A program made the translations under genes and the position numbers. The notes below the pieces were generated by a model, which was not told the DNA's origin, searched no databases, and saw nothing but the letters and a program-made list of their open reading frames with translations. This document shows positions 1 through 60,222 of a stretch of DNA of 64,000 nt, in pieces. Origin of the DNA: a virus (lineage: Duplodnaviria > Heunggongvirae > Uroviricota > Caudoviricetes); IMG/VR virus record IMGVR_UViG_3300045988_004821, one strand, 5' to 3'. Positions within the stretch are counted from its first letter, which is position 1; every line of letters begins with the position of its first letter.

Positions 1-63
1 AATTACTTACAAGGTTCTGAAGAGGCTCCTGTAAGTTTAAACGTTAACAATTCAGGTGAAGAA

Positions 64-531: not shown

Positions 532-542
532 GGAACACAATA

Positions 543-920: not shown

Positions 921-953
921 TAACAATAATAAGACATTCTGGAGAATTTTACA

Positions 954-2057: not shown

Positions 2058-2078
2058 TATTCTTAAGGAGGGTTATGA

Positions 2079-3408: not shown

Positions 3409-3982
3409 AAAAGGTCTAGTTAGAACCTTAGTGGATGTTATTGGTCACAGATTAGCTCGTGATAAAAATAATAGACCAAACGTAATTAGAGCTTACCCTT
3501 CTGATAACTCAAATGACAAAGGTTTAAAACCTGACCAGCCATTTATTACCGTATATTGTCAAGATGCTGCAACACCTTATGGTTGGGTTCTTGATAAGTT
3601 TGTTGAAGATGATGTAGTTTGTTACAGAATTGCTTTTCAGATTCCAGTATTAATTACGGTGAATGGTAAAGGTGCTCACAGTATTATGCTTGAGCTTAAA
3701 CAAAGATTAGAGATGAGTTCAGTCAGAGATTTAATCCTTGAAGAAACAGGAGCTACAGTACTGGACACTGGAGCAATCCCAAATGATTACACTTATCTCA
3801 ATACAGATTTCGAAAATTCTGCACCTCTTGTTGTAACTCTTGTAAAAAACTCAGTCCTGAAAGATGAACGTGGAAGTATTATTGAGCGTGTCATTGTTGA
3901 TGGTGAGTTAGTTTATGAAGAAGGACAAGAGCCACCAGAATATATTATCCATCTAGATGTAGACTCCAAAGGGGTAAAATAA
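3383..3982 (+). CDS. hypothetical tail terminator / sheath-associated protein
   Basis: 199-aa ORF immediately upstream of sheath-like gene. Confidence 0.3.
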   Translation: MQLETAELEKGLVRTLVDVIGHRLARDKNNRPNVIRAYPSDNSNDKGLKPDQPFITVYCQDAATPYGWVLDKFVEDDVVCYRIAFQIPVLITVNGKGAHSIMLELKQRLEMSSVRDLILEETGATVLDTGAIPNDYTYLNTDFENSAPLVVTLVKNSVLKDERGSIIERVIVDGELVYEEGQEPPEYIIHLDVDSKGVK

Positions 3983-5335
3983 ATGTGGAATCCAATTGTT
4001 AATGTAGATATTACATTGAACACCGCAGGAACTACAAGAGAAGGTTTTGGTTTGCCACTATTCTTAGCTTCAACAGATAACTTTGAAGAAAGAGTCCGTG
4101 GTTACACTTCCTTAACTGAAGTTGCTGAAGATTTCGATGAAAACTCTGCTGCATATAAGGCTGCTAAACAACTTTGGAGTCAGACTCCTAAAGTAACTCA
4201 GCTTTATATTGGTAGACGCGCTATGCAGTACACTGTATCAATTCCTGATGAGGTTACTGAGAGCACGGACTACTCAATTACTGTAGCTGTCGGTGGGGGA
4301 ATGTCACAACCATTCCAGTACACCTCACAAGGTGAAGATACTGCCGAGAATGTATTACAACAGTTTAAAACACAGATTGAAGCTGACCAATCAATTAAAG
4401 ATAAAGTTTCAGTCAATGTTACTGGTAGCAACGGTTCTGCCACAATGGTCATCTCCAAAGCTGGTGACAATGATTTCGTGAAGGTAACCACTACAGCACA
4501 AACTGTGTCTATTGCAAGCACAACTGCTGATACAGCGTCAACTGCTCTGGCAGCTATTGAAGCTTATTCTACCGACTGGTATTTCATTGCAGCAGAAGAC
4601 AGAACTCAACAGTTTGTTTTGGCAATGGCTTCTGAGATTCAGGCTCGTAAGAAAATCTTCTTCACAGCTAACTCTGATGTAGCAGCACTGCAAGGTACAG
4701 AATTAAATGGTGCAAATGATGTTCCAGCACAGCTTGCTAAGAGTATGTATACTCGCACAGTTTGCTTGTGGCATCACACAGCGGCAGAAGATTATCCAGA
4801 GATGGCATATATTGCTTATGGCGCTCCATACGATGCAGGGTCAATTGCTTGGGGTAATGCTCAGTTGACTGGTGTAGCTGCTTCTTTACAGCCAGCTAAT
4901 AAGAGACCTCTGACAAGCATTCAGAAGTCAGCTTTAGATGTACGTCACTGTAACTTTATCGACCTTGATGGTGGTGTTCCAGTGGTTCGTAGAGGGATTA
5001 CTTCTGGTGGGGAATGGATTGATATCGTCCGTGGTGTTGACTGGTTAGAATCAGACCTGAAAACTTCTCTGAGAGACTTGCTAATTAACCAGAAGGGTGG
5101 TAAGATTACTTATGATGATACTGGTATTACCCGTATTCGTCAAGTCATTGAAACCTCTCTACAAAGAGCAGTCAACAGAAACTTCCTGTCATCTTACACA
5201 GTTAATGTTCCTAAAGCCTCTCAAGTTGCTTTGGCAGACAAGAAAGCTCGTATCCTGAAAGATGTTACCTTCGCAGGTATCTTAGCAGGGGCTATCTTGG
5301 ATGTTGACTTGAAAGGTACAGTGGCTTACGAATAA
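3983..5335 (+). CDS. tail sheath protein
   Basis: 450-aa ORF directly upstream of tube-like gene and chaperone/tape-measure genes. Confidence 0.55.
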   Translation: MWNPIVNVDITLNTAGTTREGFGLPLFLASTDNFEERVRGYTSLTEVAEDFDENSAAYKAAKQLWSQTPKVTQLYIGRRAMQYTVSIPDEVTESTDYSITVAVGGGMSQPFQYTSQGEDTAENVLQQFKTQIEADQSIKDKVSVNVTGSNGSATMVISKAGDNDFVKVTTTAQTVSIASTTADTASTALAAIEAYSTDWYFIAAEDRTQQFVLAMASEIQARKKIFFTANSDVAALQGTELNGANDVPAQLAKSMYTRTVCLWHHTAAEDYPEMAYIAYGAPYDAGSIAWGNAQLTGVAASLQPANKRPLTSIQKSALDVRHCNFIDLDGGVPVVRRGITSGGEWIDIVRGVDWLESDLKTSLRDLLINQKGGKITYDDTGITRIRQVIETSLQRAVNRNFLSSYTVNVPKASQVALADKKARILKDVTFAGILAGAILDVDLKGTVAYE

Positions 5336-5350
5336 TAGAGGTAAATTGGA

Positions 5351-5797
5351 ATGGCTATGTATCAGCAATATTCCCCTAAAGACGTTGTATGTAGCTGGAA
5401 TGGTATTGCCATTGAAGGCTTTGCCCCAGACTCATTTTTACGTCTACAGAGAACATCACCACTTATCACACCAGTTGTAGGTGCAGGTGGTCAGGTTGCT
5501 CTGACAAGAAATGCAGACAAGACAGGTACTATTGAGATTGAGCTAATGCAGACTTCTCTCTCTAACCAGATGCTTTCTGCAATTCAAGCTAAACAAGACA
5601 ACATGGAACTTGAAGAAGATATCTCTTCTAACTTCGTAATCTACGACCCATCAGGCTCTGTTCTGGCAACTGGTATTAATGCTTGGTTGCAGGAATTACC
5701 ACAGATTGAACTTGGGCGTGACCAGAACTCTAAAACTTGGATTTTTGGTTGTGAGAAGCTAGACTACACTTCTACAATTCCAGCGTCAAGTGTTTAA
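5351..5797 (+). CDS. tail tube protein
   Basis: 148-aa ORF after sheath gene, followed by a terminator-like hairpin, then chaperone and tape-measure genes. Confidence 0.5.
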   Translation: MAMYQQYSPKDVVCSWNGIAIEGFAPDSFLRLQRTSPLITPVVGAGGQVALTRNADKTGTIEIELMQTSLSNQMLSAIQAKQDNMELEEDISSNFVIYDPSGSVLATGINAWLQELPQIELGRDQNSKTWIFGCEKLDYTSTIPASSV

Positions 5798-5810
5798 TAA
5801 ATCCTATAAG

Positions 5811-5841
5811 GGGGAGACTTTAAAAGGTCTTCCCCTTTTTT
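5811..5841 (+). terminator. rho-independent terminator after tail tube gene
   Basis: Hairpin GGGGAGAC...GTCTTCCCC followed by TTTTTT. Confidence 0.6.
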
Positions 5842-5870
5842 GTTTCTTTTAAAAGTATTAAGGAATCACA

Positions 5871-6269
5871 ATGAAAACAGAATCTAAAGTAATTAATGGT
5901 AAGAAAGTAAATATCGTTCTGCTTGGGGCAAGAGATGGGATTAAGATGTCTATGAAGCTGGGTAAAATTGTTGTTCCAACATTTGCACAGATGCTATCAA
6001 GTCTGACTGATAAAGATAAGAAAGAAGCTCCAATGGTTCCATTTAAAGACCTTGTTGAAGCTTGTTTTGACAGAATTGAAGAAATTAACCTTGAAGAAAT
6101 GGCTACCCTGTTATTTCAAGGGGCAACTGTTGATGACTTCCCACTCAATATTGATACATACTTCCAAGCAAACTACGGTGAGTTTATTGATTACTTAGCA
6201 TTTGCGCTGGAGGCAAACTTCGGAAGTTTTTTCGAAGCAAGCATTTTCAAAAGCCTAACTTCTCAGTAA
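5871..6269 (+). CDS. tail assembly chaperone (G-like)
   Basis: Located between tube and tape measure; slippery T_TTT_TTC near 3' end allows -1 shift into next ORF. Confidence 0.45.
   Translation: MKTESKVINGKKVNIVLLGARDGIKMSMKLGKIVVPTFAQMLSSLTDKDKKEAPMVPFKDLVEACFDRIEEINLEEMATLLFQGATVDDFPLNIDTYFQANYGEFIDYLAFALEANFGSFFEASIFKSLTSQ
6227..6233 (+). promoter_or_regulatory. putative -1 programmed ribosomal frameshift slippery site (T_TTT_TTC)
   Basis: X_XXY_YYZ heptamer in zero frame near end of chaperone ORF; -1 frame open into 6272-6511. Confidence 0.4.
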
Positions 6270-6271
6270 AC

Positions 6272-6510
6272 ATGGGTAATACTCTACAGACACCACTAAC
6301 TGATGCTGCTGTAGAGGCAACCTATGAAGAAGCAGACGAGATGAAATTTGTGCTTGCTATTTATGGTATGGAAGGGTGTAAAGAAACACTTGACCAACTC
6401 TTTGCTATGACATTCTCTGATTTATTATCATTGAGACAATTTCTTGAAATTCAGAGGTCGTATAAAGAGGAAATTGCTTACAACGAACTTAGAAGAGCAG
6501 GAAAAATGTA

Positions 6511-6511
<1 letters not shown>
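6272..6511 (+). CDS. tail assembly chaperone extension (T-like part of putative G/GT frameshift product)
   Basis: In -1 frame relative to upstream chaperone, with no stop between slippery site and this ORF. Confidence 0.4.
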
Positions 6512-14527
<8,016 letters not shown>

Positions 14528-14529
14528 TA

Positions 14530-15702
14530 ATGGCAGTAGGTGAAATTCAAATTAGTGCCTTGCCTCAAGCATCCTTACCAATTGACCTTAGTGATATCTT
14601 CCATCTTAAGCAGGGTATTGAGGATAAGAGGTGTACTCTTGAGCAATTACTTGCTCCACACGCAAGCCTAAGAAATAACCCTCATGGTGTTACTAAAACA
14701 CAAATTGGTTTAGATAATGTTATTAATGCTCTTCAGTTAGTCGCTGCAAATAACTTATCAGATATTGTTAATGTAGCTGAGGCAAGAGCAAATCTACAGA
14801 TTATGTCTTCAGAAGAGGTTAATAACCTTGTCCAGCAACATATCAAGGACAAGAGTAACCCACACAATACAACTAAGGCACAGGTTGGTTTAAGTAATGT
14901 TCAGAACTGGACAACATCTAATCTGTATAACGAAGATGCAGATAAGTATGCTACAGCAAGAGCAGTAAATAACTTGTACAAGGCTGTTCAGGCTTCTTAT
15001 CCAGTAGGTACTATCCATCTTTCTATGAACTCTGCAAACCCTTCCACATACTTAATTTGTGGAGGTACTTGGGAGTTAGTTTCAAAAGGCAGGGCATTGG
15101 TTGGCTATGACTCTGATACAAGACCAGCAGGTTCTGTATTTGGCGCTTCAACTGTCACTTTGTCAGTTAATAACATGCCTCAGCACTCCCACTCTGTGTC
15201 TCTTAGCGGTGGTGGTCACACTCATAATGCAACTGTGTCAATTTCAGCTTTTGATTATGGGACTAAGACTACAAACTCTTTTGACTATGGGACAAAAGCT
15301 ACTAACACAACTGGTAACCATACACACAGTGTGTCAGGTAACACTAGCACCAATGGTACTCACAACCATGATGTGTATCCTAGAGAAAATGATGGCACTG
15401 GTAATGCTGTGGCTGACTCTGATGGTGGTGGTGCAAGAAGGACATCAAGGACTTCTAGTGATGGTGCGCACTCACACAGCTTTAACGTCACATCTGGTGC
15501 ATCAGGTGACCACAGCCACACGGTTGGTATTGGTGCTCACAGTCATACAGTTGGTATTGGTTCACATACGCATAGTGGCACTGTAACAGTTTCTTCTTCT
15601 GAACATACACATAGTGGCAATACAAATAGTGTTGGTGGAGGTCAGGCAGTTAATATTGAACAGCCATCCTTCGTACTGTATGTATGGCAGAGAACAGCTT
15701 AA
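14530..15702 (+). CDS. tail fiber protein with His-X-His repeat tip
   Basis: C-terminal third has repeated HTHS/HSHS/HSHTVGIG motifs; C-terminus ...YVWQRTA paralogous to next gene. Confidence 0.6.
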   Translation: MAVGEIQISALPQASLPIDLSDIFHLKQGIEDKRCTLEQLLAPHASLRNNPHGVTKTQIGLDNVINALQLVAANNLSDIVNVAEARANLQIMSSEEVNNLVQQHIKDKSNPHNTTKAQVGLSNVQNWTTSNLYNEDADKYATARAVNNLYKAVQASYPVGTIHLSMNSANPSTYLICGGTWELVSKGRALVGYDSDTRPAGSVFGASTVTLSVNNMPQHSHSVSLSGGGHTHNATVSISAFDYGTKTTNSFDYGTKATNTTGNHTHSVSGNTSTNGTHNHDVYPRENDGTGNAVADSDGGGARRTSRTSSDGAHSHSFNVTSGASGDHSHTVGIGAHSHTVGIGSHTHSGTVTVSSSEHTHSGNTNSVGGGQAVNIEQPSFVLYVWQRTA

Positions 15703-15711
15703 TTTCTTTAC

Positions 15712-15732
15712 AGGGGCTTTATAGCCCCTTTT
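15712..15732 (+). terminator. hairpin between the two tail fiber genes (weak terminator)
   Basis: AGGGGCT-TTAT-AGCCCCT followed by TTT; preceded by TTTACAGGGG also seen in cassette B. Confidence 0.35.
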
Positions 15733-15748
15733 AAGAGGAAAATTTATA

Positions 15749-18103
15749 ATGGCAGATTACAAATTGAGTGAGCTAAACTCAATCGACACAATCCGTTCAG
15801 ATGACCTTCTTCATGTCAGAGTTAAAAAGAGACCTGAAATGCTGGGTGATGAAGACCGTCGAATGACCTATCAAGATTTCTTAGCATCTTTTAAGCTTGA
15901 AAGATTTGTTCAGATTGCTGGTAGCACTATGACGGGTGACTTAGGAATTGTTAAGCTACTTTACGGTGGCAAGGCTGTATTCGACCCCACAGGCTCTTCT
16001 GAGATTACTGTTGGTGATGTTTTAAAGACTTTTAAAATCAACGCAAACGGCCTTAAACTAACTATTGCAGACGCTTCAAGGTCGGCAACTGTTTATCATA
16101 CTTTGAATAAGCCAAGCCCTAATGAACTTGGGATGAGAACTAATGAAGAGAATGACGCAAGGTATGCAAGACTAGCCGTGAATAATACCTTTAGAGGTAC
16201 TCAAGCTATCCTCTCTGACAATGAAGCGCTCATTATTAAAAATATCACTCAAGGTGCTCCACTCTATCTTCGTGGTCAAGATGCAGATGGTACTAACAGA
16301 TGGTATCTAGGTAATGATAATAGGGGTACAAATAATCTTGTATTGAAGAATGTAAAGTCTGACGTTTCAATTGCTATTTTAGAGAATTTGGTGACAGTCA
16401 ACAGAACTCTTCAAATTGCTGGCCAAGTTCAGCCTTCAAGTTTTGCTAACTTAGATGCTAGGTATTTTACCCAGACAGCAGCTAATCAGAGATTTGCGCA
16501 GTTAGCTGGTAATAACACTTTTACTGGTACTAACACTTTCTCTAATTTTGTTGCTAAGAAGAATGCTGAAGCCATCACTCTGCAAAATGTGGACACTGCT
16601 CCCTCTTTATATATCCGAGCAAGAAAGTCAGATGGGAATTATAAGTGGTACATTGGTAATGACGGTGATGAGAACATTTTAAAAATCTATAACTATCTAA
16701 CAAAAACACAAGTCTCACTAGGTAACACTATTGCCATGAGCAAAACAGTTCAAATTGATGGTCAAGTACAACCTTCTGATTGGACTAACATTGATTCTAG
16801 ATATATTCCGGCAGCCAATTTGAGTAATCTCCCTAAACTTAATGTGTCTAATACTTTTACAAATGTGCAAACTATTGTATCTAACAACGAGGGTTTGGTA
16901 TTAAGGAACTTGACACAGGGGCAGCCACTATATATCCGTGGTGTTGATACTGAGAATGTTTCTAGATGGTGGTTAGGTGTAGGTGGTCCAAACTCTAATG
17001 TGGTAACACTTAACAACACCTATTCTGACACTAAAATCTCACTTGGTGGCTCATCAGTAATGACTAATAAGAGCTTAGCTATTACTGGTCAAGTACAACC
17101 TTCTGACTTCTCTAACTTAGATGCTAGATACTATACCCAAGCTGCCGCAAACGCAAGATATATGCTTGCAAGCATCACTGGTTCGGCTTCTGAAGCAGAT
17201 GGTGGTGATGGTGTTGCATGGGATGCAAAAACAGGTCTTTATAAGGTTACTAACACCACTGGACAGTCTTCTTCACTTGTATATAACATGTTTTTAGGGA
17301 CTAGTTCTACACCATCTGCACAATTAAAGTTTTCGTTTAAAAATGGTGGGATGTGGTATAGAACATCAAGAGATGCCTATGGCTTCGAAGTTAATTGGTC
17401 TAAAGTTTACACGGAAGCACAAAAACCAACCCCTTCAGAGATTGGTGCATACACTAAAGCTGAAACTGACCAGAAAATTGCAACAGCAATTAGTGACTCT
17501 ACAGACCTTAACAAAATCTATCCAGTTGGTATTGTAACGTGGTTTAACAGTAATGTTAACCCTAATACAGCACTCCCTGGTCTAACTTGGACGTACCTGA
17601 ATAATGGTGTTGGTAGAACTATCAGAATCGCAGCAGCAAACGGTTCAGATGTTGCTACAACTGGTGGTTCAGATTCTGTGACATTAGCTGTTGGTAACTT
17701 ACCATCACACACTCACAGTTTCTCTGCTACCACTTCATCTTTTGATTATGGTACGAAGAACACTAACAGTACTGGTGCACATACCCATTCAGTTAGTGGT
17801 ACTGCTGCATCTGCTGGGCAACACGCACACAGAATTTCACAGGGTGACAACGCTAACGTTTCATCAGGTAGAGTCGCATCTTCAAACTCTGCTCAGACCC
17901 ATGTTGGTTGGACTGAAAATGATGGTGTTCACACCCACTCAGTTAGTGGTACTGCTGCATCTGCTGGTGGACATGCTCACTCTGTAGGTATTGGTGCTCA
18001 TAGCCACACAGTTAGTGGTAACACTGGTGGTACAGGTTCTGGTTCAGCATTTAGTGTTACTAACCAGTTCTACAAGTTAATGGCTTGGGTAAGAACTGCT
18101 TAA
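15749..18103 (+). CDS. large tail fiber protein with internal repeats and His-X-His tip
   Basis: 784 aa; three approx 100-aa repeats containing GQVQPSDF/W; C-terminal HTHS/HAHS repeats ending ...MAWVRTA. Confidence 0.65.
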   Translation: MADYKLSELNSIDTIRSDDLLHVRVKKRPEMLGDEDRRMTYQDFLASFKLERFVQIAGSTMTGDLGIVKLLYGGKAVFDPTGSSEITVGDVLKTFKINANGLKLTIADASRSATVYHTLNKPSPNELGMRTNEENDARYARLAVNNTFRGTQAILSDNEALIIKNITQGAPLYLRGQDADGTNRWYLGNDNRGTNNLVLKNVKSDVSIAILENLVTVNRTLQIAGQVQPSSFANLDARYFTQTAANQRFAQLAGNNTFTGTNTFSNFVAKKNAEAITLQNVDTAPSLYIRARKSDGNYKWYIGNDGDENILKIYNYLTKTQVSLGNTIAMSKTVQIDGQVQPSDWTNIDSRYIPAANLSNLPKLNVSNTFTNVQTIVSNNEGLVLRNLTQGQPLYIRGVDTENVSRWWLGVGGPNSNVVTLNNTYSDTKISLGGSSVMTNKSLAITGQVQPSDFSNLDARYYTQAAANARYMLASITGSASEADGGDGVAWDAKTGLYKVTNTTGQSSSLVYNMFLGTSSTPSAQLKFSFKNGGMWYRTSRDAYGFEVNWSKVYTEAQKPTPSEIGAYTKAETDQKIATAISDSTDLNKIYPVGIVTWFNSNVNPNTALPGLTWTYLNNGVGRTIRIAAANGSDVATTGGSDSVTLAVGNLPSHTHSFSATTSSFDYGTKNTNSTGAHTHSVSGTAASAGQHAHRISQGDNANVSSGRVASSNSAQTHVGWTENDGVHTHSVSGTAASAGGHAHSVGIGAHSHTVSGNTGGTGSGSAFSVTNQFYKLMAWVRTA

Positions 18104-18182
18104 TCCCTTGTTGACTGATTGTTAAGATGGTGTTAATATTCTTTATGGGTATTCTCACCATCTTGGCTGATGAGGTGATTAA

Positions 18183-18380
18183 ATGCCTACAATCCTAGCA
18201 ATTCTTCTAAAAAATCTAGGTAGCTTCTTCTGGAAACTCATTTTATCCCTTCTAAGTGAATACATGATTGAGAAAGTGTTCTTTAAGCTTGCAAGATATC
18301 TTGCGAGTAAGACAGACACACCTATTGATGATGAGTTCGTAGATAACTTAGAAAAAGCTTTTAAGGGGGAGAATAAATGA
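18183..18380 (+). CDS. hypothetical small protein
   Basis: 65-aa ORF after tail fiber gene. Confidence 0.3.
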   Translation: MPTILAILLKNLGSFFWKLILSLLSEYMIEKVFFKLARYLASKTDTPIDDEFVDNLEKAFKGENK

Positions 18381-18748
18381 AGTGGCTAGAGGAAGCTTTT
18401 AAAAATAATATTGGTGCAATTGTAGTTGGTATTTTTAGTGTTATTGGGATGTATACCACCATGCAAGTTTCGGATGGTAAGCAAGAAGTGTCTGTCACAA
18501 CAAAGTTACAGCAGCTAGATAATTACAGCAAAGCTAATTACTCAGCTATTCGTGATTTACAGTCTGACATGAGACTGATTCAGCTAGGGATGGAGAACCA
18601 GAAAGTTCAGTTAGAGAATGTTAAGGGCGAGAACGCAAAACTTACTAAAACCCTTGATAAATTCTCTGACAGCGTGAACAATCTGGCTCAATCAGTATCA
18701 GCCTTGCAAGCTATTACTGAAAAGAACACAAAGAATACTGAAAAATAA
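18377..18748 (+). CDS. hypothetical membrane-anchored coiled-coil protein
   Basis: N-terminal hydrophobic helix (IGAIVVGIFSVIGMY), then coiled-coil-like region; followed by strong terminator. Confidence 0.35.
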   Translation: MKWLEEAFKNNIGAIVVGIFSVIGMYTTMQVSDGKQEVSVTTKLQQLDNYSKANYSAIRDLQSDMRLIQLGMENQKVQLENVKGENAKLTKTLDKFSDSVNNLAQSVSALQAITEKNTKNTEK

Positions 18749-42883: not shown

Positions 42884-45028
42884 ATGAACAAAGTACAGAT
42901 TATTAAAAAGAACGGCTCACTTGAAGAACCTGATATCAAAAAAGTTTTAGCAGCAGTAGCTAAGTCAGCTAACAGGGTTGGATATAAAGAACTTCCACCA
43001 GATGTTACCCAAGCTCTTGAGTCAGCATTCATGAGGATTTTGGTAAAGTCCACTAAGCAGAATAATTTGCTTATCTCGGTAAATGATATTCACAGTATTG
43101 TTGAAGGTGCTTTGGCAGAAGTTAATCACGAGATTTATGAGTCTTACTCAACATACAGAAATTACCGTAAAGAGGTTGCTCAAAATTGGGATGAACTCTA
43201 CCAGAAGACTAAAGATACACTCTTCTTAGGTGACCGTGAAAATGCTAACTTTGACAGCAGTTTAATTTCTACGAAAGGTTCAATTATCCGTGGTTACCTG
43301 ACTAAAGAAATCTTTAAACAATACCATTTAACACCAGAGGAACTTGAAGCCATTGAAAAAGGGTTTATCTACATCCATGACTTAAGAGACCTAATTTTTG
43401 GTGGTATTAACTGTTGCTTGTTTGACATTGGTAAAGTACTGAAAGGTGGCTTTGAAATGTCTGGCATCGAATACTGTGAACCGAAGTCTGTGCTGTCAGC
43501 CTTACAGGTTATTGGTGATGTAGTTCTTTCAGCAACTGCACAGCAATTTGGTGGCTTTACTTTAGCAGAGATTGATAAGGTACTTGTACCGTATGCTAAG
43601 AAGTCTCTACGCTATCATGCTGAGAAAGCAGCATCTTATGGTATTCCTAAAGAACATTACCATAATTATGTCATGGAGCAGCTACAGATTGAATTAACTC
43701 AAGGTTTTCAGTCACTTGAAATGAAGCTAAACACTGTACCTTGTAGTCGTGGGGATTTTGCATTCACAACTTTAACATTTGGGTTGCTCGACTCAGATAT
43801 GTCTAATGAAGACAACCGACTACAATACATGATTGCAAGTACTCTCCTAGATGTTCGTATGAATGGACAAGGTAAGAGCAAGAAGCCTGTTGTATTTCCT
43901 AAACTGGTTTATATTTATGACCAGAAGAGACACGATGAGAATATCTGTCAAGGACACCTGTACAGTAAAGCTATAGAGTGTTGCTCTAAAGCGATGTATC
44001 CAGATTTCTTAAGTGTATCTGGTCATGGTGCTGTAGCAGAAGCTTTTGAGCGTTCTGGCAAGGTTATTTCGCCGATGGGTTGCCGAGCGTTCTTATCTCC
44101 GTATCTTAACGAGAATGGGGAAGAGTTCTACGTTGGTCGTGCTAACATTGGTGCTGTATCTTTGAACTTACCAATGATTTACCAGTATTCTAAAGAGAAC
44201 GGTTTAGATTTCTGGAAAGAGCTTGATAAGTACCTAGAAATGATTCGCAGCTTCCACAAGAAACGTTACGAAATGATTGCTAATATGCCAGCAAGTTCTA
44301 ACCCTCTTGCATTTACACAAGGTGGTCTGTATAAAGGAACTAAGAAGCCTACTGACAGGGTTGGCTGGGATATTGTGAAGTCCTTCACAGCTTCTTTTGG
44401 GGTTACTGCGCTTGATGAGTTATCTGTTCTTGCTGAAGGTAAACGACTTCATGAAGTTGGAAGCTATAGTTTTGCATACGATGTTCTGGCGTACATCAAC
44501 ATGAAAACTGAAGAGTTTAAAAATGAAGATGGTTTCTTATATGCAGTCTATGGCACTCCAGCAGAATCACTATGTGGGACTCAGCTAAAACAGTTCAGAG
44601 ATATGTTTGGGGTTATCAAAGGTGTTTCCGATAAGGAATACTTTACAAACAGTTTCCATATGAATGTTGTAGCAGACATCTCACCATTTGAGAAGCAGGA
44701 CTTAGAAGAGCCATTCTTCCATATCTGTAGAGGCGGTAGAATCCAGTATGTAAGAGTAGCTAACCCAGAAAACTTATCAGCACTTAAAAGTTGTATTACT
44801 AGAGGGATGTTGAAGGGTTTTTATCAGGGACTTAACTTTGACTTAGCAATCTGTGAACATTGTGGTAACAGACCAAAGGCTGATGTTGAAGAATGTGAGG
44901 TTTGCCATTCACATGATATCTCTGTGATTAACAGGGTGTGCGGGTACTTGTCATTCACAAAAATTAAAGGTCAGTCTCGAATGAATGACGCTAAGATGGC
45001 AGAAATTAAGGATAGGGTTTCTATGTAG
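42884..45028 (+). CDS. nrdD: anaerobic ribonucleotide reductase (class III)
   Basis: 714 aa; C-terminal glycine-radical motif RVCGYLS; Cys-rich zinc site CEHCG...CEVCH; activase gene downstream. Confidence 0.85.
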   Translation: MNKVQIIKKNGSLEEPDIKKVLAAVAKSANRVGYKELPPDVTQALESAFMRILVKSTKQNNLLISVNDIHSIVEGALAEVNHEIYESYSTYRNYRKEVAQNWDELYQKTKDTLFLGDRENANFDSSLISTKGSIIRGYLTKEIFKQYHLTPEELEAIEKGFIYIHDLRDLIFGGINCCLFDIGKVLKGGFEMSGIEYCEPKSVLSALQVIGDVVLSATAQQFGGFTLAEIDKVLVPYAKKSLRYHAEKAASYGIPKEHYHNYVMEQLQIELTQGFQSLEMKLNTVPCSRGDFAFTTLTFGLLDSDMSNEDNRLQYMIASTLLDVRMNGQGKSKKPVVFPKLVYIYDQKRHDENICQGHLYSKAIECCSKAMYPDFLSVSGHGAVAEAFERSGKVISPMGCRAFLSPYLNENGEEFYVGRANIGAVSLNLPMIYQYSKENGLDFWKELDKYLEMIRSFHKKRYEMIANMPASSNPLAFTQGGLYKGTKKPTDRVGWDIVKSFTASFGVTALDELSVLAEGKRLHEVGSYSFAYDVLAYINMKTEEFKNEDGFLYAVYGTPAESLCGTQLKQFRDMFGVIKGVSDKEYFTNSFHMNVVADISPFEKQDLEEPFFHICRGGRIQYVRVANPENLSALKSCITRGMLKGFYQGLNFDLAICEHCGNRPKADVEECEVCHSHDISVINRVCGYLSFTKIKGQSRMNDAKMAEIKDRVSM

Positions 45029-45035
45029 AATACAA

Positions 45036-45608
45036 ATGAATTACGAACTAATATATAATGCAATTATTAAAAAGGCACATTCTGAAAGGGGTGTGCCTCT
45101 CACATACTACAAATGTCAAGGTAAGGGTTATGAAAGACACCATATCATACCAGTATGTCTAGGTGGCGATAAAATTAGTGGAGATAACATTGCTTTACTT
45201 ACACCTAGAGAGCATTATATAGCTCATAAATTACTGGTTAAGATGTATCCAAACAATCATAAGTTATGGTTTGCATGGAGCAGGTTAGCTCATGATGGCC
45301 TAGATAGGAAAATATCATCCAGAGACTATGAAAAGGTAAGGGCTTTAAACTCGAAAGCTCTATCGATTGTGAATAAAGGTAGGGTTTTCACTGAAGAGCA
45401 TCGAAGACGATTAGGAGAAGCTCAAATAGGTAATACAAAGTCAAAAGGTTGTAAAAGGTCTATGGAAACAAGGAAGAAGATGTCAGAAGCCGGAAAAAAG
45501 CCAAAGAAAAAGAAAACTTGCCCGCATTGTGGCATGACTGGTGGTGCTGGTAACATGACTCGATATCATTTTGACAATTGTAAGAAAAAAAAAAATAACC
45601 TTATGTAA
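45036..45608 (+). CDS. HNH homing endonuclease
   Basis: HNH motif YERHHIIPVCLGGDKISGDNIALLTPREHYIAH; inserted between nrdD and nrdG; start set at MNYELIY (track start 44985). Confidence 0.7.
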   Translation: MNYELIYNAIIKKAHSERGVPLTYYKCQGKGYERHHIIPVCLGGDKISGDNIALLTPREHYIAHKLLVKMYPNNHKLWFAWSRLAHDGLDRKISSRDYEKVRALNSKALSIVNKGRVFTEEHRRRLGEAQIGNTKSKGCKRSMETRKKMSEAGKKPKKKKTCPHCGMTGGAGNMTRYHFDNCKKKKNNLM

Positions 45609-45619
45609 AACTTGACAAG

Positions 45620-46006
45620 GTGGTGTGGGTCTTGATAGGCTTACATCACCTTTTTATTTGGAGTTACATTATGGACTTGTGGCTTTATGTAGCAGTTTGT
45701 GGGATTGTATGTCTGATAATCTTATTTATTCTTGGAATAATGCGATTTAGAGACATCATACAGTCAGATTTTTTGCCTGAGTTTGCCATGATGGTTGGAG
45801 TTATTGCACTTTGTGTCTTGGCGGTGTTCTATTCATACAAAACTGTGATATGGATGAAGTCAAACAATTGTGTAAAAACTCATCAACATCGTGAGGTTAC
45901 TTATTTTGTGAGTGTACTTAGTGGGAACACCACTGTACTTGTCCCACAAACTTCTGTAGAGTATCTTTACACATGTGATAATGGTAAAACTATATGGTGG
46001 AATTAA
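45620..46006 (+). CDS. hypothetical membrane protein
   Basis: Several hydrophobic helices (e.g. LWLYVAVCGIVCLIILFILGI). Confidence 0.3.
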   Translation: MVWVLIGLHHLFIWSYIMDLWLYVAVCGIVCLIILFILGIMRFRDIIQSDFLPEFAMMVGVIALCVLAVFYSYKTVIWMKSNNCVKTHQHREVTYFVSVLSGNTTVLVPQTSVEYLYTCDNGKTIWWN

Positions 46007-46209
46007 CAATGGCAACACTCTTAAAGGTATTGACACCCACACTACACATAGTAATCTTCTTCTTTGGTGTTAGTGTTATGGTATGGGGTTTTTCAGACCC
46101 ACAATGGAATTTCTCATATCATGGTCAGATGGATTTATGGTCATGCTTCAAACCATTTTTAGGGTTAGCTATAGCATTCAGTGCATTACCAACTAAGGTG
46201 AGATTATGA
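45994..46209 (+). CDS. hypothetical small membrane protein
   Basis: Two hydrophobic segments. Confidence 0.25.
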   Translation: MVELTMATLLKVLTPTLHIVIFFFGVSVMVWGFSDPQWNFSYHGQMDLWSCFKPFLGLAIAFSALPTKVRL

Positions 46210-47472: not shown

Positions 47473-47754
47473 ATGAGAGAGACTAAAATGGGAATTTTAG
47501 GTAATATGAAAGCTGGCTTCTTGAAGGCACTGGCAAAAGCAGCAGCAATCATTTCTATGACTGGAAAGCAGGTTGGTGTAGATGCTTCAGCAGTTGCACA
47601 AGTTCTTACAAGCCAAATTGAACAGCAACCTTACATCTATGTAGGCCGTGGCAAAGGTGGTAAGAAACAAGCCCACCGTCCGTCTGGTGCAGCAGCTATT
47701 AAACGAGCAGCCAAGAAAGCTCGTAACCGTAAACGTAATAAGAAGGTTAAATAA
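47473..47754 (+). CDS. hypothetical protein with basic C-terminal tail
   Basis: C-terminus KRAAKKARNRKRNKKVK. Confidence 0.3.
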   Translation: MRETKMGILGNMKAGFLKALAKAAAIISMTGKQVGVDASAVAQVLTSQIEQQPYIYVGRGKGGKKQAHRPSGAAAIKRAAKKARNRKRNKKVK

Positions 47755-47756
47755 TC

Positions 47757-48077
47757 ATGAGCAAAGTTTATAACACTCGCAAATTACAGATTTTCGTACT
47801 GTGCCAGTTTATGGCTAAAGAATACAACTTCTACTATTGCGGCACAGGTTTTATTAGTGATGATGATGGCTCATACCTTCCATTCAAAGAAGCTGTGAAG
47901 CTCTTTAATGAAGAGGAAAGCTCTAAGAAAGATATTGAAAAGGTGAAACTGACCTACAGCAAGAAAGATAAGAAGATTATCTGCCTAGATAACTTTGTAA
48001 AAGTTACTGGAGAAGCAAAAGAGTTTATGAATGAGAGTGAGATTTCATTCACAAGCATCTTGAAAGTAGCTCAGTAA
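47757..48077 (+). CDS. hypothetical protein
   Basis: 106-aa ORF followed by hairpin plus 15-nt T tract. Confidence 0.3.
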   Translation: MSKVYNTRKLQIFVLCQFMAKEYNFYYCGTGFISDDDGSYLPFKEAVKLFNEEESSKKDIEKVKLTYSKKDKKIICLDNFVKVTGEAKEFMNESEISFTSILKVAQ

Positions 48078-48090
48078 ACAGATACTATAA

Positions 48091-48124
48091 GGGAACTGTA
48101 AAGGTTCCCTTTTTTTTTTTTTTT
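48091..48124 (+). terminator. terminator with unusually long T tract
   Basis: GGGAAC-TGTAAAG-GTTCCC followed by about 15 consecutive T. Confidence 0.55.
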
Positions 48125-48138
48125 ATTTTGGAGATAAT

Positions 48139-48654
48139 ATGTACCTGTCAAACCTGAAACGTTCGGCTGCAATGTCAGTTCTAAGACTCAGCTTTGATGA
48201 GCGTCAAGAGTTTATAGACTCCCACAAATATGACCCTTCAAATTCTAATCACATGGTTCTTTGGAATCGTGATAACTTCCGTGAAAGAGCACTTGTCCGT
48301 TATTACCCACACTACACAATAGATAACCTGTATGAATGGTGTGTTGTGAAGAACACTATTGCAACACTGAACAATCTTTGCAGGTATACAGGTAAGCAAA
48401 CATTTACACTAGGCCACCACAAACCTGTTACAAAGGGTGGTGAGCATCACTGTGCAAACTGGTTTATTCAGACTAAACTTGATAACCAGAAGCAAGGTGA
48501 TAGTCTTCTAAGCACCCCTAAGATGACCTATGAAGAGCAAGAGATATATATCAAAAATAATATGCCAGATGTGCTTGACAACCACTATACAGATTTGGCA
48601 ATATCTCTCCTGTTGAAGTTCGAGACAGTTTATAGGGCAACTTACAATGGCTAA
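48139..48654 (+). CDS. putative HNH-family endonuclease
   Basis: Motif GHHKPVTKGGEHHCANWFIQTKLDNQKQG resembles an HNH core. Confidence 0.4.
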   Translation: MYLSNLKRSAAMSVLRLSFDERQEFIDSHKYDPSNSNHMVLWNRDNFRERALVRYYPHYTIDNLYEWCVVKNTIATLNNLCRYTGKQTFTLGHHKPVTKGGEHHCANWFIQTKLDNQKQGDSLLSTPKMTYEEQEIYIKNNMPDVLDNHYTDLAISLLLKFETVYRATYNG

Positions 48655-48925
48655 AGAGAAGTGGGAAATCCTACCATTAGTGAGTGAAGGTGGTAACGGT
48701 TGTGAGATGTACATGATACGTGGTCATGTTCCAGAGCCAATTGCACTTGAGATGGTAAACAACTTTACAGATGGTTCTTACAAAGACTTAGGCGAACCAA
48801 CTGTCAAGCAACAATGGGTTAAACCTGTACCAGACAGCACAGGTAACTGTAGTGTACTTTATCACGTTGTAGACCCTGCAAAATGCAAATCTGCAATGGC
48901 AGTAACAAACGTAACTTTTGATTGA
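48647..48925 (+). CDS. hypothetical protein
   Basis: 92-aa ORF. Confidence 0.3.
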   Translation: MAKEKWEILPLVSEGGNGCEMYMIRGHVPEPIALEMVNNFTDGSYKDLGEPTVKQQWVKPVPDSTGNCSVLYHVVDPAKCKSAMAVTNVTFD

Positions 48926-48936
48926 GAGAGAAAACT

Positions 48937-49818
48937 ATGAAAACATCTATCCGTGTTACAGTTCATTCACCAACTAAAGGAACTCATGAAGAAGAGTTTA
49001 ACATCATCCAATTTCCTTCTGGTGAGATTGGTGGACACTTTTCGCCAGAGTTTGTTGATTTCACTGCTTATGCAGCATCATCCATCAACAATGTGATTAT
49101 GATTGTAAAAGGCTATGATAAGGACACTTTGTTTGCTGTGGCACTTGCTAAAGAAGCAATTGATGATTTAATTCCTCATGATTATGCTTTAAAGACTGTC
49201 ATCTTTTACTACTTACCAAATGCACGTTATGACCGTCACATGTTTAAAGGCGACGCAGCAGCTTTAAAGGTTTTTGCTAAACAGATTAATGCAATGGGAT
49301 TTGGCGCAGTCTGTGCAGTTGACCCTCACAGCTATGTACCAGATAACCTGTTTAACTGCTTCCAGAGTATTCCTCAAAAGGAAATTGCAGTCCACTATGC
49401 AAATGACCCACTGATTGATTACTTAGTAGCCCCAGATGCAGGTGCTGCTAAGAAGATTGCAGAGACTGCTAAAGAGGTGGATAAACCATACATCACAATG
49501 TCTAAAGTGCGTAACCTTAAGACTGGTGAAATTACTGGTATGCGAATCCTTGATGATGTTGATTTGACAGATAAAACCGTCATGATTCTGGATGATATCT
49601 GTGATGGTGGTCGAACCTTCATAGAAGCAGCTAAGCATCTTCGTGAAGCAGGTGCAAAACGTGTGGAACTCTATGTAACACATGGTATCTTCTCTAAAGA
49701 TGTTGAAAACCTTCTTGACAATGGCATTGACCACATCTACACTACAAACTCTTTAGGGGAAGCTAAAGACCGTGGCTTAACACATTATAGCCAAGTTACT
49801 GTAGCAAACCTTGATTAA
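48937..49818 (+). CDS. prs: ribose-phosphate pyrophosphokinase family protein (possible ADPR-PP synthetase)
   Basis: PRPP-binding loop ILDDICDGGRT, NARYDR and VAPDAGA blocks as in Prs; directly upstream of Nampt-like gene; start at MKTSIRV (track start 48922). Confidence 0.7.
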   Translation: MKTSIRVTVHSPTKGTHEEEFNIIQFPSGEIGGHFSPEFVDFTAYAASSINNVIMIVKGYDKDTLFAVALAKEAIDDLIPHDYALKTVIFYYLPNARYDRHMFKGDAAALKVFAKQINAMGFGAVCAVDPHSYVPDNLFNCFQSIPQKEIAVHYANDPLIDYLVAPDAGAAKKIAETAKEVDKPYITMSKVRNLKTGEITGMRILDDVDLTDKTVMILDDICDGGRTFIEAAKHLREAGAKRVELYVTHGIFSKDVENLLDNGIDHIYTTNSLGEAKDRGLTHYSQVTVANLD

Positions 49819-49827
49819 AACTTTATA

Positions 49828-49848
49828 GGGGCTTAAAAGCCCCATTTT
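49828..49848 (+). terminator. hairpin after Prs-like gene (weak or partial terminator)
   Basis: GGGGCTT-AAA-AGCCCC followed by ATTTT. Confidence 0.3.
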
Positions 49849-49863
49849 GAGAGAGATTAAAAG

Positions 49864-51645
49864 ATGACTAAATCACTTTATGCAGTACCAGCAGGTTTAA
49901 ATGCAGATGCTTACAAATCTGGTCATGTTTACCAGTATCCTAGTGCAACAGAATATTTGATGTTCAACCTGACACCACGTAGCGACAAATGGTTTAACAG
50001 TCCATTAGCAATTGATGGTGTAGTCGCTTTTGGTATTCAACGTTTTGTTAAAGATTACTTGATAGACCACTGGAATGCTACGTTCTTTGAACGTGACAAA
50101 AAAGAAGCAATTGACGAAATCTTAGAAGTCATGAATGGTGTTCTGGGCAAAGATGCTATCGGTCGAGAGCATTGGGAAGCACTTCACGACTTAGGTTATC
50201 TACCAGTTGAAGTATACGCTGTAGAAGAAGGCACGGTTGTCCCTATGCGTGTTCCGATGATTGTTTTCCAGAACACTGTTTCAGGTTTCCATTGGGTAGC
50301 AGGTTATCTGGAAGATGCTTTCTCTGCTGAGATTTGGAAGGCTTGTACCATTGCAACTATTGCATTGCACTACAAACGTATCTGTAAGAAGTGGGCTGAC
50401 CTTACTTGTGACAACGACTTGCATTTGCCTTATCAGTGCCATGACTTTGCTATGCGTGGTATGTCCGGCTTTACTGATGACGCATTTAATGCTGTAGGCC
50501 ACTTAACCAGCTTTAAAGGAACTGATAGCTTCCCTGCTGTGTATACGGCTAAACGAATCTATGGACAGTCCTACCCAATCTCTGATATTGGTAGCTCTGT
50601 ACCAGCCACTGAGCACTCTGTAATGTGTGCAAACATTGCTTGGGAAGGTGGTAATGAGTTGATTGAAGAAGAAAGACGCTTTAAAGGTGAGTTACAAACC
50701 TTCCGTCGTTTCTTAACAGAAACTTACCCAACTGGTATTGCAAGTGTTGTTTCAGACACTTATAACTTCTGGAGAACTGTGTCAGAAATTTTACCAGCAC
50801 TTCGTAAAGAAATTATGGAACGTGATGGCAAACTGGTAATTCGTCCTGACTCTGGAGACCCTGTACATATTGTCACAGGTTATAAAGCAATCCACTTAGA
50901 ATGTGCTAAAAAGGCTTATTACGAACACTTAAGCAAGCTTGAAGCCAGCGACACAATGTTGAATGCTGTTCTGAACATGAAGCTTGAAAACATCAATTAT
51001 GGTATTGCTGGATGGCTACTGTCAGAAGGCTACGAAATGGTTGTTGACAGAGAAGACTTTGAAGTTGCTGATACAGTGCTGTTGAAAAACGCTTATATGG
51101 TTGGTTCTGCAAACGTTGTAACACGTCCTGTAGCTGAGATTGATGGAGCTATTAAAACACTGTACAACATCTTTGGGGGAACTATTAACTCTAAAGGGTT
51201 TAAGGTACTGGATGAGCATATAGGACTTATCTATGGTGACTCTATCACGCTGGAACGTGCAAACGAAATCCTGAAGCGTCTGTATGAAATGGGTTTTGCA
51301 AGCTCTAACGTAGTGTTTGGCGTAGGTTCTTACACTTACCAGTACATGACTCGTGACACCTTTGCATTTGCTGTCAAAGCAACTCTTGCAAGCATTGGTG
51401 GTAAAGAGATTATGCTTGCAAAAGACCCTAAAACAGATAGTGGTGTTAAGAAATCTGCCTTTGGTGGTGTAGCACCTATGTGGGATGGTGACAAGCTGAA
51501 AGCTATAGATGGCTATGGATTCCAGAGTTTTGCAGATGTACTTGACCACCCAGCTTGTGCCTTACGTTTAGTCTTTAGTGACTCTGAGCAGTTCGGTTAC
51601 ACAACTCTTGGGGATATTCGAAATAATATTGACAAGCAGCTTTAA
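49864..51645 (+). CDS. nadV: nicotinamide phosphoribosyltransferase family protein (possible nicotinamide ADPR transferase)
   Basis: 593 aa with N-terminal YAVPAGLNADAYKSGH resembling Nampt/NadV; terminator downstream. Confidence 0.7.
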   Translation: MTKSLYAVPAGLNADAYKSGHVYQYPSATEYLMFNLTPRSDKWFNSPLAIDGVVAFGIQRFVKDYLIDHWNATFFERDKKEAIDEILEVMNGVLGKDAIGREHWEALHDLGYLPVEVYAVEEGTVVPMRVPMIVFQNTVSGFHWVAGYLEDAFSAEIWKACTIATIALHYKRICKKWADLTCDNDLHLPYQCHDFAMRGMSGFTDDAFNAVGHLTSFKGTDSFPAVYTAKRIYGQSYPISDIGSSVPATEHSVMCANIAWEGGNELIEEERRFKGELQTFRRFLTETYPTGIASVVSDTYNFWRTVSEILPALRKEIMERDGKLVIRPDSGDPVHIVTGYKAIHLECAKKAYYEHLSKLEASDTMLNAVLNMKLENINYGIAGWLLSEGYEMVVDREDFEVADTVLLKNAYMVGSANVVTRPVAEIDGAIKTLYNIFGGTINSKGFKVLDEHIGLIYGDSITLERANEILKRLYEMGFASSNVVFGVGSYTYQYMTRDTFAFAVKATLASIGGKEIMLAKDPKTDSGVKKSAFGGVAPMWDGDKLKAIDGYGFQSFADVLDHPACALRLVFSDSEQFGYTTLGDIRNNIDKQL

Positions 51646-51659
51646 AAGTATATGATAAG

Positions 51660-51682
51660 AGGCTCCTACGGGAGCCTTTTTA
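51660..51682 (+). terminator. rho-independent terminator after Nampt-like gene
   Basis: AGGCTCC-TACG-GGAGCCT followed by TTTTT. Confidence 0.65.
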
Positions 51683-51698
51683 ATTTCTGGAGAAAACT

Positions 51699-52034
51699 AT
51701 GAAAATCAAAGAGATGAACATCAACATTGTCTTAGAAGAACGTTGGGAGAACATCAAGAAGCCTGAAGATGGTCATAAGTTCCTTAACAAAATCTTGGTA
51801 GCAGCTAAAGAAGAACTGACTGGCAAGGTCGCAGCAGCAATCACAATAAAGGTCTGCGTAAAAGGTCTTCCGCAACATCACCAATTTGCACTTGACGAGT
51901 TTAAAGAGAGCTTCTACAATCCAAACAAACAGATGCTTGAAAGTAACTTTGCAGTGTCTACAAGTATTGTCCATGACAGAAGCTTTATCCTTTACAAGAA
52001 TATGAGAGGTGAGTCATGCAAGCATATTGGATAG
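51699..52034 (+). CDS. hypothetical protein
   Basis: 111-aa ORF. Confidence 0.3.
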   Translation: MKIKEMNINIVLEERWENIKKPEDGHKFLNKILVAAKEELTGKVAAAITIKVCVKGLPQHHQFALDEFKESFYNPNKQMLESNFAVSTSIVHDRSFILYKNMRGESCKHIG

Positions 52035-52192
52035 AAATTTTACTGTCACTTGGTAGTGTAGCAGTATTTGTTTACCTCCTTTGTAAGTACTTTGCAGAGC
52101 ACAAAAAATGTGACTACTGTAATGGAGAGGGGTACATAAGGGCAGGATGTTGCCCTATGTGTGGTGGTTCTGGTAAAATGTTTAATAAGTAA
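52016..52192 (+). CDS. hypothetical small membrane zinc-ribbon protein (58 aa, below ORF-track cutoff)
   Basis: Read by eye: MQAYWIEILLSLGSVAVFVYLL... with CDYCNG and CPMCGG; fills gap upstream of rIIA. Confidence 0.25.
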   Translation: MQAYWIEILLSLGSVAVFVYLLCKYFAEHKKCDYCNGEGYIRAGCCPMCGGSGKMFNK

Positions 52193-59442: not shown

Positions 59443-60222
59443 ATGGGTATTGTAAAAGTTGTAAAAGGTAACTTACTGGCTGCCTTCAAAAACACAGATA
59501 TTGAGTTAATTGCTCATGGTTGCAACTGTCGTAACCTCATGGGCGCTGGAATCGCTCAAAAAATTGCTAAGATTTTCCCAAAAGCTGAAGAAGCTGACCG
59601 GAAATTCCATAAAAAGTTTGGCTACAGTGCTCATGATATCGGATACCAGATGGTTGGTGAGGTGTCACATGCTCGAACGGAGTATGGTTACATTTTTAAC
59701 CTATATACACAGTTGGATGTTGGGAAGTGTGCATCATACCGATACTTAGTGGAGTCACTAGAAAAACTCCGTAAATTTTGCTGGCTGCACAACATTCGTA
59801 AGATTGGTTTACCTATGATTGGGGCAGGTATCGGTGGTTTAGATGCACAAGCTGTGAAAAGCCTCATTAATAGTGTTATGTATAACGTTGATGTGTACCT
59901 CTACGTCTATGATGAAACAATGGCAAGTGTAGTTACCCCTAAGTATGCTACCTCAGCACCACAATTCTATGATGGTGTCGTGCTAAGTGACGGGAAGACT
60001 AATCAAGTTACCCTCTATCAACTTGTTGAAGGTAAGGTTGAGGTTAGTTACCCTCTGGTTAGTGAGATGGGTATGTGCAACAGTGAAATGTTCCCAGTTG
60101 ACCCGTTTGGAAGATATGAAGGTGTATTCTTTGATAACTACCCAGCAGCGTACATCTACACAACAAATCAGGATGAAGTTCACTACTTGCTGTATTCTAA
60201 AAAGTTCAAATTCATAAGCTGA
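59443..60222 (+). CDS. TARG1/DarG-like macrodomain protein (putative ADP-ribose hydrolase) with C-terminal extension
   Basis: AHGCNCRNLMGAGIA and GLPMIGAGIGGLD match TARG1 blocks HCISEDCRMGAGIA and SMPRIGCGLDRL; about 95 extra C-terminal residues. Confidence 0.65.
   Translation: MGIVKVVKGNLLAAFKNTDIELIAHGCNCRNLMGAGIAQKIAKIFPKAEEADRKFHKKFGYSAHDIGYQMVGEVSHARTEYGYIFNLYTQLDVGKCASYRYLVESLEKLRKFCWLHNIRKIGLPMIGAGIGGLDAQAVKSLINSVMYNVDVYLYVYDETMASVVTPKYATSAPQFYDGVVLSDGKTNQVTLYQLVEGKVEVSYPLVSEMGMCNSEMFPVDPFGRYEGVFFDNYPAAYIYTTNQDEVHYLLYSKKFKFIS

Follow-up and report, generated by a model that had tools for sequence, protein, structure and literature searches.

The 64,000-nucleotide virus sequence analysed here (IMG/VR record IMGVR_UViG_3300045988_004821; the whole stretch is called the window) carries two adjoining plus-strand genes, a Prs-like gene (adps) and a Nampt-like gene (namat), which very probably form the NAD+ (nicotinamide adenine dinucleotide) reconstitution pathway 1 (NARP1) operon of a Felixounavirus. 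The system is already known: it is the published NARP1, found here in the genus of its discovery. NARP1 consists of Adps, an ADP-ribose (ADPR) pyrophosphate synthetase, and Namat, a nicotinamide ADPR-transferase, and was first found in phage Bas63, where genes 79-80 encode it (Osterman et al., bioRxiv 10.1101/2024.02.11.579819). An earlier note on this DNA, written from the letters alone, had named that literature as bearing on the pair; this is correct and applies directly, with Namat 99% and Adps 78% identical between the window and Bas63. By sequence, the window is assigned to Felixounavirus: it is collinear with Escherichia phage JohannRWettstein (Bas63, MZ501086) at ~91% DNA identity, and a megablast search with the locus returned 259 phage records, nearly all of them Felixounavirus and relatives, with a best identity of 97% (LF82P2, HY02, heid).

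In the pathway as it would run in this phage, a host defence (SIR2, TIR, SEFIR and similar NADases) would cleave NAD+ to ADPR and nicotinamide, Adps would move pyrophosphate from ATP to the 1'' position of ADPR to give ADPR-pyrophosphate (ADPR-PP), and Namat would replace the pyrophosphate with nicotinamide to give NAD+. As NAD+ would be regenerated in one step, no nicotinamide mononucleotide (NMN) adenylyltransferase (NMNAT) would be needed; with the NAD+ pool restored, the phage would replicate. The chemistry was reported for the enzymes of the Bacillus phage SPbetaL1, whose Adps converts ADPR and ATP to ADPR-PP and whose Namat converts ADPR-PP and nicotinamide to NAD+ with a preference for ADPR-PP (bioRxiv 10.1101/2024.02.11.579819). 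NARP1 enzyme activities have been shown in the literature for the SPbetaL1, Paenibacillus and DyoEdafos enzymes. Bas63 lacking genes 79-80 cannot overcome SIR2-HerA, and ADPR-PP accumulates in infected cells (bioRxiv 10.1101/2024.02.11.579819). An independent Bas63 knockout screen recorded a 1e4-1e6-fold loss of plating on Sir2-HerA cells when g79 or g80 was deleted, and lesser effects with Ec86 retron and hhe (10.1101/2024.10.10.617714). Two groups have thus demonstrated anti-defence protection for the Bas63 orthologues (10.1101/2024.02.11.579819; 10.1101/2024.10.10.617714). The chemistry (SPbetaL1 enzymes), the ADPR-PP accumulation and the anti-defence phenotype (Bas63) are thus taken from the literature on orthologues and homologues; the window itself contributes orthology, conserved catalytic and specificity residues, fold, operon anatomy and a negative search for NMNAT. 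By analogy, we infer the same behaviour for the window enzymes, including the divergent N-terminal allele of Adps described below.

Adps matched Pfam Pribosyltran/Pribosyl_synth and PHROG 619 (1.7e-97). The loop ILDDICDGGRT pointed out in the earlier note is encoded at 49585-49617, with DDICDGGRT at aa 219-227. Residues invariant in the Adps family were found at R97, D99 and R100 (ARYDR), D129, H131 and S132 (DPHS), K190 and R192 (catalytic loop) and in the DDICDGGRT loop; K190, R192, R97/D99/R100 and H131 were invariant in a 39-sequence family alignment. The window protein therefore retains the ARYDR ATP motif, the catalytic K190/R192 loop and the family-specific DDxCDGGRT loop. K190 aligned with K197 of B. 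subtilis Prs and with K162 of SPbetaL1 Adps, so both the catalytic lysine and the ATP-binding motifs are present; K162 is the position of the mutated residue described in bioRxiv 10.1101/2024.02.11.579819. Bit scores were 121 to the Adps of Vibrio phage Gary, 100 to SPbetaL1 Adps and 62 to E. coli Prs. Adps fell far under every NCBIfam Prs equivalog cut-off (PRK00934, 104.7 vs 296; PRK03092, 64 vs 438), and the broad TIGR01251 subfamily model was the only Prs model that it passed (124.8 vs 113). On these sequence comparisons Adps is grouped with the Namat-associated Adps proteins and not with housekeeping Prs. The AlphaFold2 (AF2) model had the two-domain Prs fold (mean predicted local distance difference test score, pLDDT, 90.6); no solved Adps structure was found in the PDB, and the model could be compared only with Prs structures (template modelling score, TM, ~0.75).

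Relative to Bas63 gp79, 229 of 293 Adps residues were identical (78%) without gaps, and relative to the Adps of phage HY02 identity was 99.7%. HY02 is covered by the supplementary tables of the discovery paper, where its Adps stands in the Adps/Prs table and its Namat is listed as 'Adps-associated' (bioRxiv 10.1101/2024.02.11.579819). The divergence from Bas63 is concentrated in one part of the gene: DNA identity falls from ~95% to 62-75% over 48900-49400, without gaps and with flanks at 88-97%, and aa 1-155 of Adps are 66% identical to Bas63 gp79 while the C-terminal domain is 91% identical. Two allele classes of the Adps N-domain were found in Felixounaviruses, with ~155 records >=90% identical to the window and ~91 at 60-80%, and both classes retain the invariant residues. 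In this pattern the first half of Adps is a mosaic, carrying a divergent allele, and it suggests that either recombination or diversifying selection has acted on the N-domain.

Namat matched Pfam NAPRTase/NAMPT_N and PHROG 448 (6e-202), and 586 of its 593 residues (99%) were identical to Bas63 gp80. In phmmer searches it scored 432 bits to SPbetaL1 Namat, 352 to HdNadV and ~144 to mammalian Nampt. Its AF2 model (pLDDT 93.4) gave as top Foldseek matches in the PDB 9W5X and 9W5W, both SPbetaL1 Namat (target-normalised TM 0.95), with HdNadV and mammalian Nampt ranking lower. Namat is closer to characterised Namat than to Nampt/NadV. The earlier note had proposed a profile or structure comparison of both proteins against Adps/Namat and against Prs/Nampt, and in that comparison both scored closer to Adps/Namat.

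Residues assigned to substrate choice were examined against the SPbetaL1 Namat crystals 9W5W/9W5X, from which an adenine 'selectivity clamp' has been described; it comprises a variable selectivity-clamp loop (SCL) and a selectivity-clamp helix motif (SCH), GSX-phi-X-phi-X-phi-TRD (NAR 2026, PMC12774641). The SCH of the window protein reads GSYTYQYMTRD, and its Y490 and Y494 align with F392 and Y396 of SPbetaL1, so that the motif is present. The published rule for the SCL is that its third residue is R, K or Y and that, if it is K or Y, the fourth residue stacks; Bas63 illustrates the K-W variant (PMC12774641). The window SCL has S-D-K42-W43, identical to Bas63, with K42 aligning to R40 of SPbetaL1, and W43 is the predicted adenine-stacking residue, in line with the published account of Bas63. 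Of the 20 positions that contact NAD+ in the SPbetaL1 Namat crystal, 16 are identical in the window protein and 4 are conservatively replaced (S-to-A, A-to-S, F-to-Y, R-to-K), and all 20 are identical between the window and Bas63. The catalytic core is intact (D15, Y17, F195, R198, D221, H251, R327 and D329, corresponding to SPbetaL1 D13, Y15, F189, R192, D215, the catalytic His, R306 and D308).

The earlier note had remarked that the Nampt-like protein is roughly 100 aa longer than typical Nampt, and the lengths agree (593 vs 491 aa). In a 35-member alignment the extra length was located mainly in ~72 residues within aa ~340-427, with a further 15 aa at 257-271 and 4 aa in the SCL. The main insertion sits between the RPDSGDP strand and the next helix, is modelled confidently by AF2 as a small alpha/beta unit, and is common to Ounavirinae-type phages down to ~46% identity; across the Namat family the insertion site varies from 21 to 104 residues. 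Searched alone, the insertion matched no Pfam family and no PDB sequence. The accompanying suggestion that the added length may reflect altered substrate handling was not supported, since the insertion is absent from SPbetaL1 Namat, in which the preference for ADPR-PP was demonstrated, and the SCL and SCH lie elsewhere. The inserted subdomain was accordingly rejected as a determinant of substrate choice: SPbetaL1 and Gary Namat are both without it, so it is not what confers use of ADPR-PP, the site is variable in length and the clamp motifs are at other positions.

NMNAT was sought in two ways. No Pfam match to CTP_transf_like, NadR or Nudix was obtained at E<=1e-3 among the open reading frames (ORFs) scanned over 18787-63912 (a few very short ORFs were left out), and in tblastn neither E. 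coli NadD nor NadR reached an E below 0.8 in the window or in the complete Bas63 genome, with KVP40 NatV not among the queries. The structural-gene block (1-18748) was covered by tblastn only and not by Pfam. The statement in the earlier note that no NMNAT is recognisable in the window was upheld, and the search that it had proposed beyond the window likewise returned none from Bas63. The same-phage NMN adenylyltransferase characteristic of NARP2 was therefore not found in these searches, which fits a pathway needing no NMNAT.

The features of the locus, with the evidence for each, are as follows.

48089-48111, plus strand: upstream intrinsic-terminator-like hairpin (9-bp stem then ~15 T; -12.4 kcal/mol).
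48139-48654, plus strand: gp77 homolog, 171 aa (89% identity to Bas63 gp77; phrog_3500).
48647-48925, plus strand: gp78 homolog, 92 aa (99% identity to Bas63 gp78; phrog_4726).
48937-49818, plus strand: adps, predicted ADP-ribose pyrophosphate synthetase (Prs-like), 293 aa (homology, AF2 model).
48937-49400, plus strand: putative divergent mosaic segment of adps, N-terminal domain, aa 1-155 (identity to Bas63).
49828-49843, plus strand: intergenic hairpin GGGGCU-UAAA-AGCCCC then AUUUU (6-bp G+C stem).
49864-51645, plus strand: namat, predicted nicotinamide ADP-ribose transferase (Nampt-like), 593 aa (homology, AF2 model).
49978-50004, plus strand: Namat SCL, RSDKWFNSP, aa 39-47 (alignment to SPbetaL1).
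50881-51144, plus strand: Ounavirinae-specific inserted alpha/beta subdomain of Namat, aa ~340-427 (alignment, AF2 model).
51325-51357, plus strand: Namat SCH motif, GSYTYQYMTRD, aa 488-498 (alignment).
51657-51680, plus strand: intrinsic terminator ending the unit (10-bp stem, 5 G-C pairs, T-run).

Both ORFs, their common orientation and the 45-bp spacer reported in the earlier note were recovered, as was the 593-aa length of the Nampt homolog. Counted from its first possible start (TTG 48922), the Prs-like ORF runs 48922-49818 on the plus strand. The earlier note had begun the pair at 48922; this is a possible TTG start, and the start of adps is likely to be the ATG at 48937, giving a product of 293 aa, because a GA-rich ribosome-binding stretch, GAGAGAGAAAAC, lies just 5' of it and both the annotation of Bas63 gene 79 and the printed HY02 sequence agree. 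The Nampt-like ORF occupies 49864-51645 on the plus strand, which leaves a spacer of exactly 45 bp (49819-49863). The adjoining, co-oriented adps and namat genes in a Felixounavirus genome have the gene arrangement of NARP1.

Four tightly packed genes (the gp77 homolog, the gp78 homolog, adps and namat) lie between terminators. The 48647-48925 gene overlaps the preceding one by 8 nt and its stop is 11 nt 5' of the adps ATG; its product gave no Pfam match. The gp77-homolog gene is apparently co-transcribed with NARP1. The hairpin at 48089-48111 is the probable 5' limit of the transcription unit, and the strong terminator that the earlier note had placed after the pair was identified at its 3' end (51657-51680; -16.6 kcal/mol, z = -3.3). 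A promoter scan yielded only consensus-level matches and did not reveal a clear promoter ahead of the first gene, in the stretch that follows the upstream terminator; the limits of the unit for this reason rest on terminators and gene packing. The hairpin in the adps-namat spacer (49828-49843; -12.6 kcal/mol, z -2.9) is kept in Bas63 and fell below the T-run criterion of the terminator scan; it may act as a leaky terminator or attenuator, or as a transcript-stabilising element. The best sigma-70-like match of the region was at 51629-51656 on the plus strand (TTGACA-16-TATGAT, 11/12), overlapping the namat stop and abutting the terminator hairpin, and may be a promoter for the downstream gene at 51699.

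Downstream of the unit are rIIA and rIIB. The region looks like an anti-defence neighbourhood, since rIIA/rIIB of Bas63 counter QatABCD (PhageMaP preprint, 10.1101/2024.10.10.617714). Bas63 gp77 has been reported in the same preprint to counter retron Ec67 and is described there as GIY-YIG; the gp77 homolog of the window gave no GIY-YIG Pfam match, and PHROGs yielded only a weak similarity to HNH endonuclease (E 7.6e-6). No Macro (Adpp) or RyR (RyDEP) gene was matched at E<=1 in the neighbours of the pair (47473-48925 and 51699-52192).

Among the characterised systems, that of Bas63 (bas63_0079/0080) shares with the window the genus, position, gene order, lengths (293/593 aa), the 45-bp spacer with its hairpin, the flanking gp77, gp78 and rIIA/B genes, and the clamp residues and inserted subdomain of Namat. 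It differs in aa 1-155 of Adps (only 66% identical), for which the window has an allele common to HY02, heid and LF82P2-type phages, and in carrying an extra small gene, 0081, after the terminator. This 345-bp gene stands directly after the namat terminator in Bas63 and is missing from the window (51693-51701), an indel at the 3' edge of the operon. SPbetaL1 shares the two-gene order, the catalytic core, the SCH motif and the fold (target-normalised TM 0.95), whereas identity is 36% for Adps and ~43% for Namat, its genes abut without a spacer, its Namat (491 aa) has neither the 15-aa insertion (window aa 257-271) nor the inserted subdomain (window aa ~340-427), and in its SCL R40 serves directly in place of the K42-W43 of the window. 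The Vibrio phage Gary NARP1-AP system (Adps-Adpp-Namat; bioRxiv 10.64898/2026.01.28.702374) has an Adps 39% identical to that of the window and the Namat clamp signature, and both genomes encode a Macro-domain protein of the same PHROG; in Gary, however, the Macro phosphatase gene lies between adps and namat, while in the window it is 7.8 kb downstream and its product is extended at the C-terminus. NARP2 (NadV-NatV of Vibrio phage KVP40) and cellular Prs + Nampt have homologous folds (Prs TM ~0.75, Nampt target-normalised TM ~0.91) but differ from the window system, for which no NMNAT partner was found and whose Adps fails the Prs equivalog thresholds; the window Namat also has the aromatic clamp residues, which Nampt is reported to lack (PMC12774641).

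The alternative to NARP1 is classical salvage, in which a true PRPP (phosphoribosyl pyrophosphate) synthetase and a true Nampt would make NMN for conversion to NAD+ by host NadR/NadD, as a NARP2-like pathway or a general boost of NAD+. Public records do label the pair ribose-phosphate pyrophosphokinase and nicotinamide phosphoribosyltransferase, in agreement with Pfam, PHROG and NCBIfam names, and Namat forms NMN from nicotinamide and PRPP in vitro (PMC12774641). These labels sit poorly with the Adps scores, which miss every Prs equivalog cut-off, and with the SPbetaL1 homolog, which gave no product in a Prs-type assay yet converted ADPR (bioRxiv 10.1101/2024.02.11.579819). ADPR-PP accumulated in Bas63-infected cells (bioRxiv 10.1101/2024.02.11.579819), Namat prefers ADPR-PP (10.1101/2024.02.11.579819; PMC12774641) and the Namat-specific clamp is present in the window protein. 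In the published phylogeny, moreover, Adps-associated Nampt homologs form a clade apart from the NMNAT-associated (NARP2) clade (bioRxiv 10.1101/2024.02.11.579819), and tblastn found no NMNAT for this phage in the window or in the Bas63 genome. Classical salvage as the function of the pair is on this evidence very improbable. Several points nevertheless weigh against reading the pair as NARP1. The published enzymology concerns SPbetaL1 proteins only 36% (Adps) and ~43% (Namat) identical to those of the window, which are known from sequence; Bas63 Adps purified poorly (bioRxiv 10.1101/2024.02.11.579819); and the window Adps N-domain differs by 34% from the genetically tested Bas63 allele. The PRPP-to-NMN activity that Namat retains in vitro (PMC12774641) belongs here too, and some classical salvage flux may be completed by host NadR/NadD.

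An extension of the NARP1 reading would add a third component. At 59443-60222 on the plus strand, 7.8 kb downstream of the pair, lies a gene for a 259-aa Macro-domain protein (PF01661, 28.9 bits), and in a split NARP1-AP the product of this distal gene, as an ADPR-1''-phosphate phosphatase, would pass ADPR on to Adps and would counter aRES-type defences, in which ADPR is left carrying a phosphate. The protein falls in PHROG 335 ('phosphatase'), as does the characterised Adpp (ADPR-1''-P phosphatase, NARP1-associated) of Vibrio phage Gary, with which it aligns across the whole Macro domain (28% identity, E 2e-13); its Pfam Macro score is in the same range as that of Adpp, and it weakly matches yeast Poa1p, an ADPR-1''-phosphatase (E ~1e-4). 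The survey of aRES and NARP1-AP went no further than two genes to either side of NARP1 (bioRxiv 10.64898/2026.01.28.702374) and would therefore have missed a distal Macro gene. On the other side, the gene is outside the operon, and no Macro phosphatase gene was matched within two genes of NARP1, the position that defines NARP1-AP. Tk.4-type proteins resemble the protein at least as closely as Adpp does (~38% identity to RB49 Tk.4), the best match among PDB sequences is a deacylase of the OARD1/TARG1 type and not Poa1p, and a further ~100 aa at the C-terminus match no family. The family occurs in ~2750 phage records, including T-even-type phages in which it is annotated Tk.4, and co-occurrence with NARP1 was for this reason judged uninformative alone. 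A functional link of the Macro gene to NARP1 is possible, and a split NARP1-AP is rather unlikely. The Macro protein is 41% identical to Bas63_0095 and 100% identical to that of Salmonella phage Si3, so that two very divergent alleles exist within the genus. Were the split arrangement true, Felixounaviruses would be resistant to aRES-type defences, the published figure of 15% of NARP1 phages with Adpp would be an underestimate, having counted only operon-adjacent genes, and the divergent Macro alleles (41% identity) together with the two Adps N-domain alleles would reflect ongoing selection on the pathway.

Further observations were made on the surrounding genome and on other records with related sequence. 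The anaerobic ribonucleotide reductase gene nrdD (42884-46038 region) is intact in the window, while in Bas63 it is split by a ~745-bp insertion with a homing endonuclease; after nrdD the window has ~1 kb more, which holds a free-standing NUMOD3/HNH-type endonuclease ORF (44985-45608) not present in Bas63. Some Felixounaviruses have a NARP1 locus ~470 bp longer, with an HNH homing endonuclease annotated under the match, so in these phages a mobile endonuclease has inserted within or beside the operon. Felixounavirus NARP1 sequence was also matched in the records of Campylobacter phage A126 (MG065668; 94% identical over the operon) and Staphylococcus phage SA1 (GU169904), the Adps of the latter being listed in the discovery-paper table; both records are probably mislabelled or contaminated rather than host jumps. 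Namat homologues of 496 aa bearing the clamp motif GS[YF]TYQYNTRD are encoded on chromosome-sized contigs of Klebsiella, Cronobacter, Erwinia, Phytobacter and Superficieibacter, and the same contig set also encodes ~285-aa Adps homologues, which suggests bacterial or prophage copies of NARP1 in Enterobacterales, beyond the Paenibacillus example of the literature.

NARP1 is a phage pathway that works through a previously unknown metabolite, ADPR-PP, and defeats several NAD+-depleting immune systems. The window locus is a same-genus orthologue of the founding example, and near-identical relatives are already in the discovery-paper tables. The locus is of practical use for annotation: public records still say Prs/Nampt, and the label 'ADP-ribose pyrophosphate synthetase' was found in only one record among the matches listed. 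The natural alleles of the Adps N-domain, together with the inserted subdomain of Namat, would be usable for mapping which parts of the two enzymes matter.

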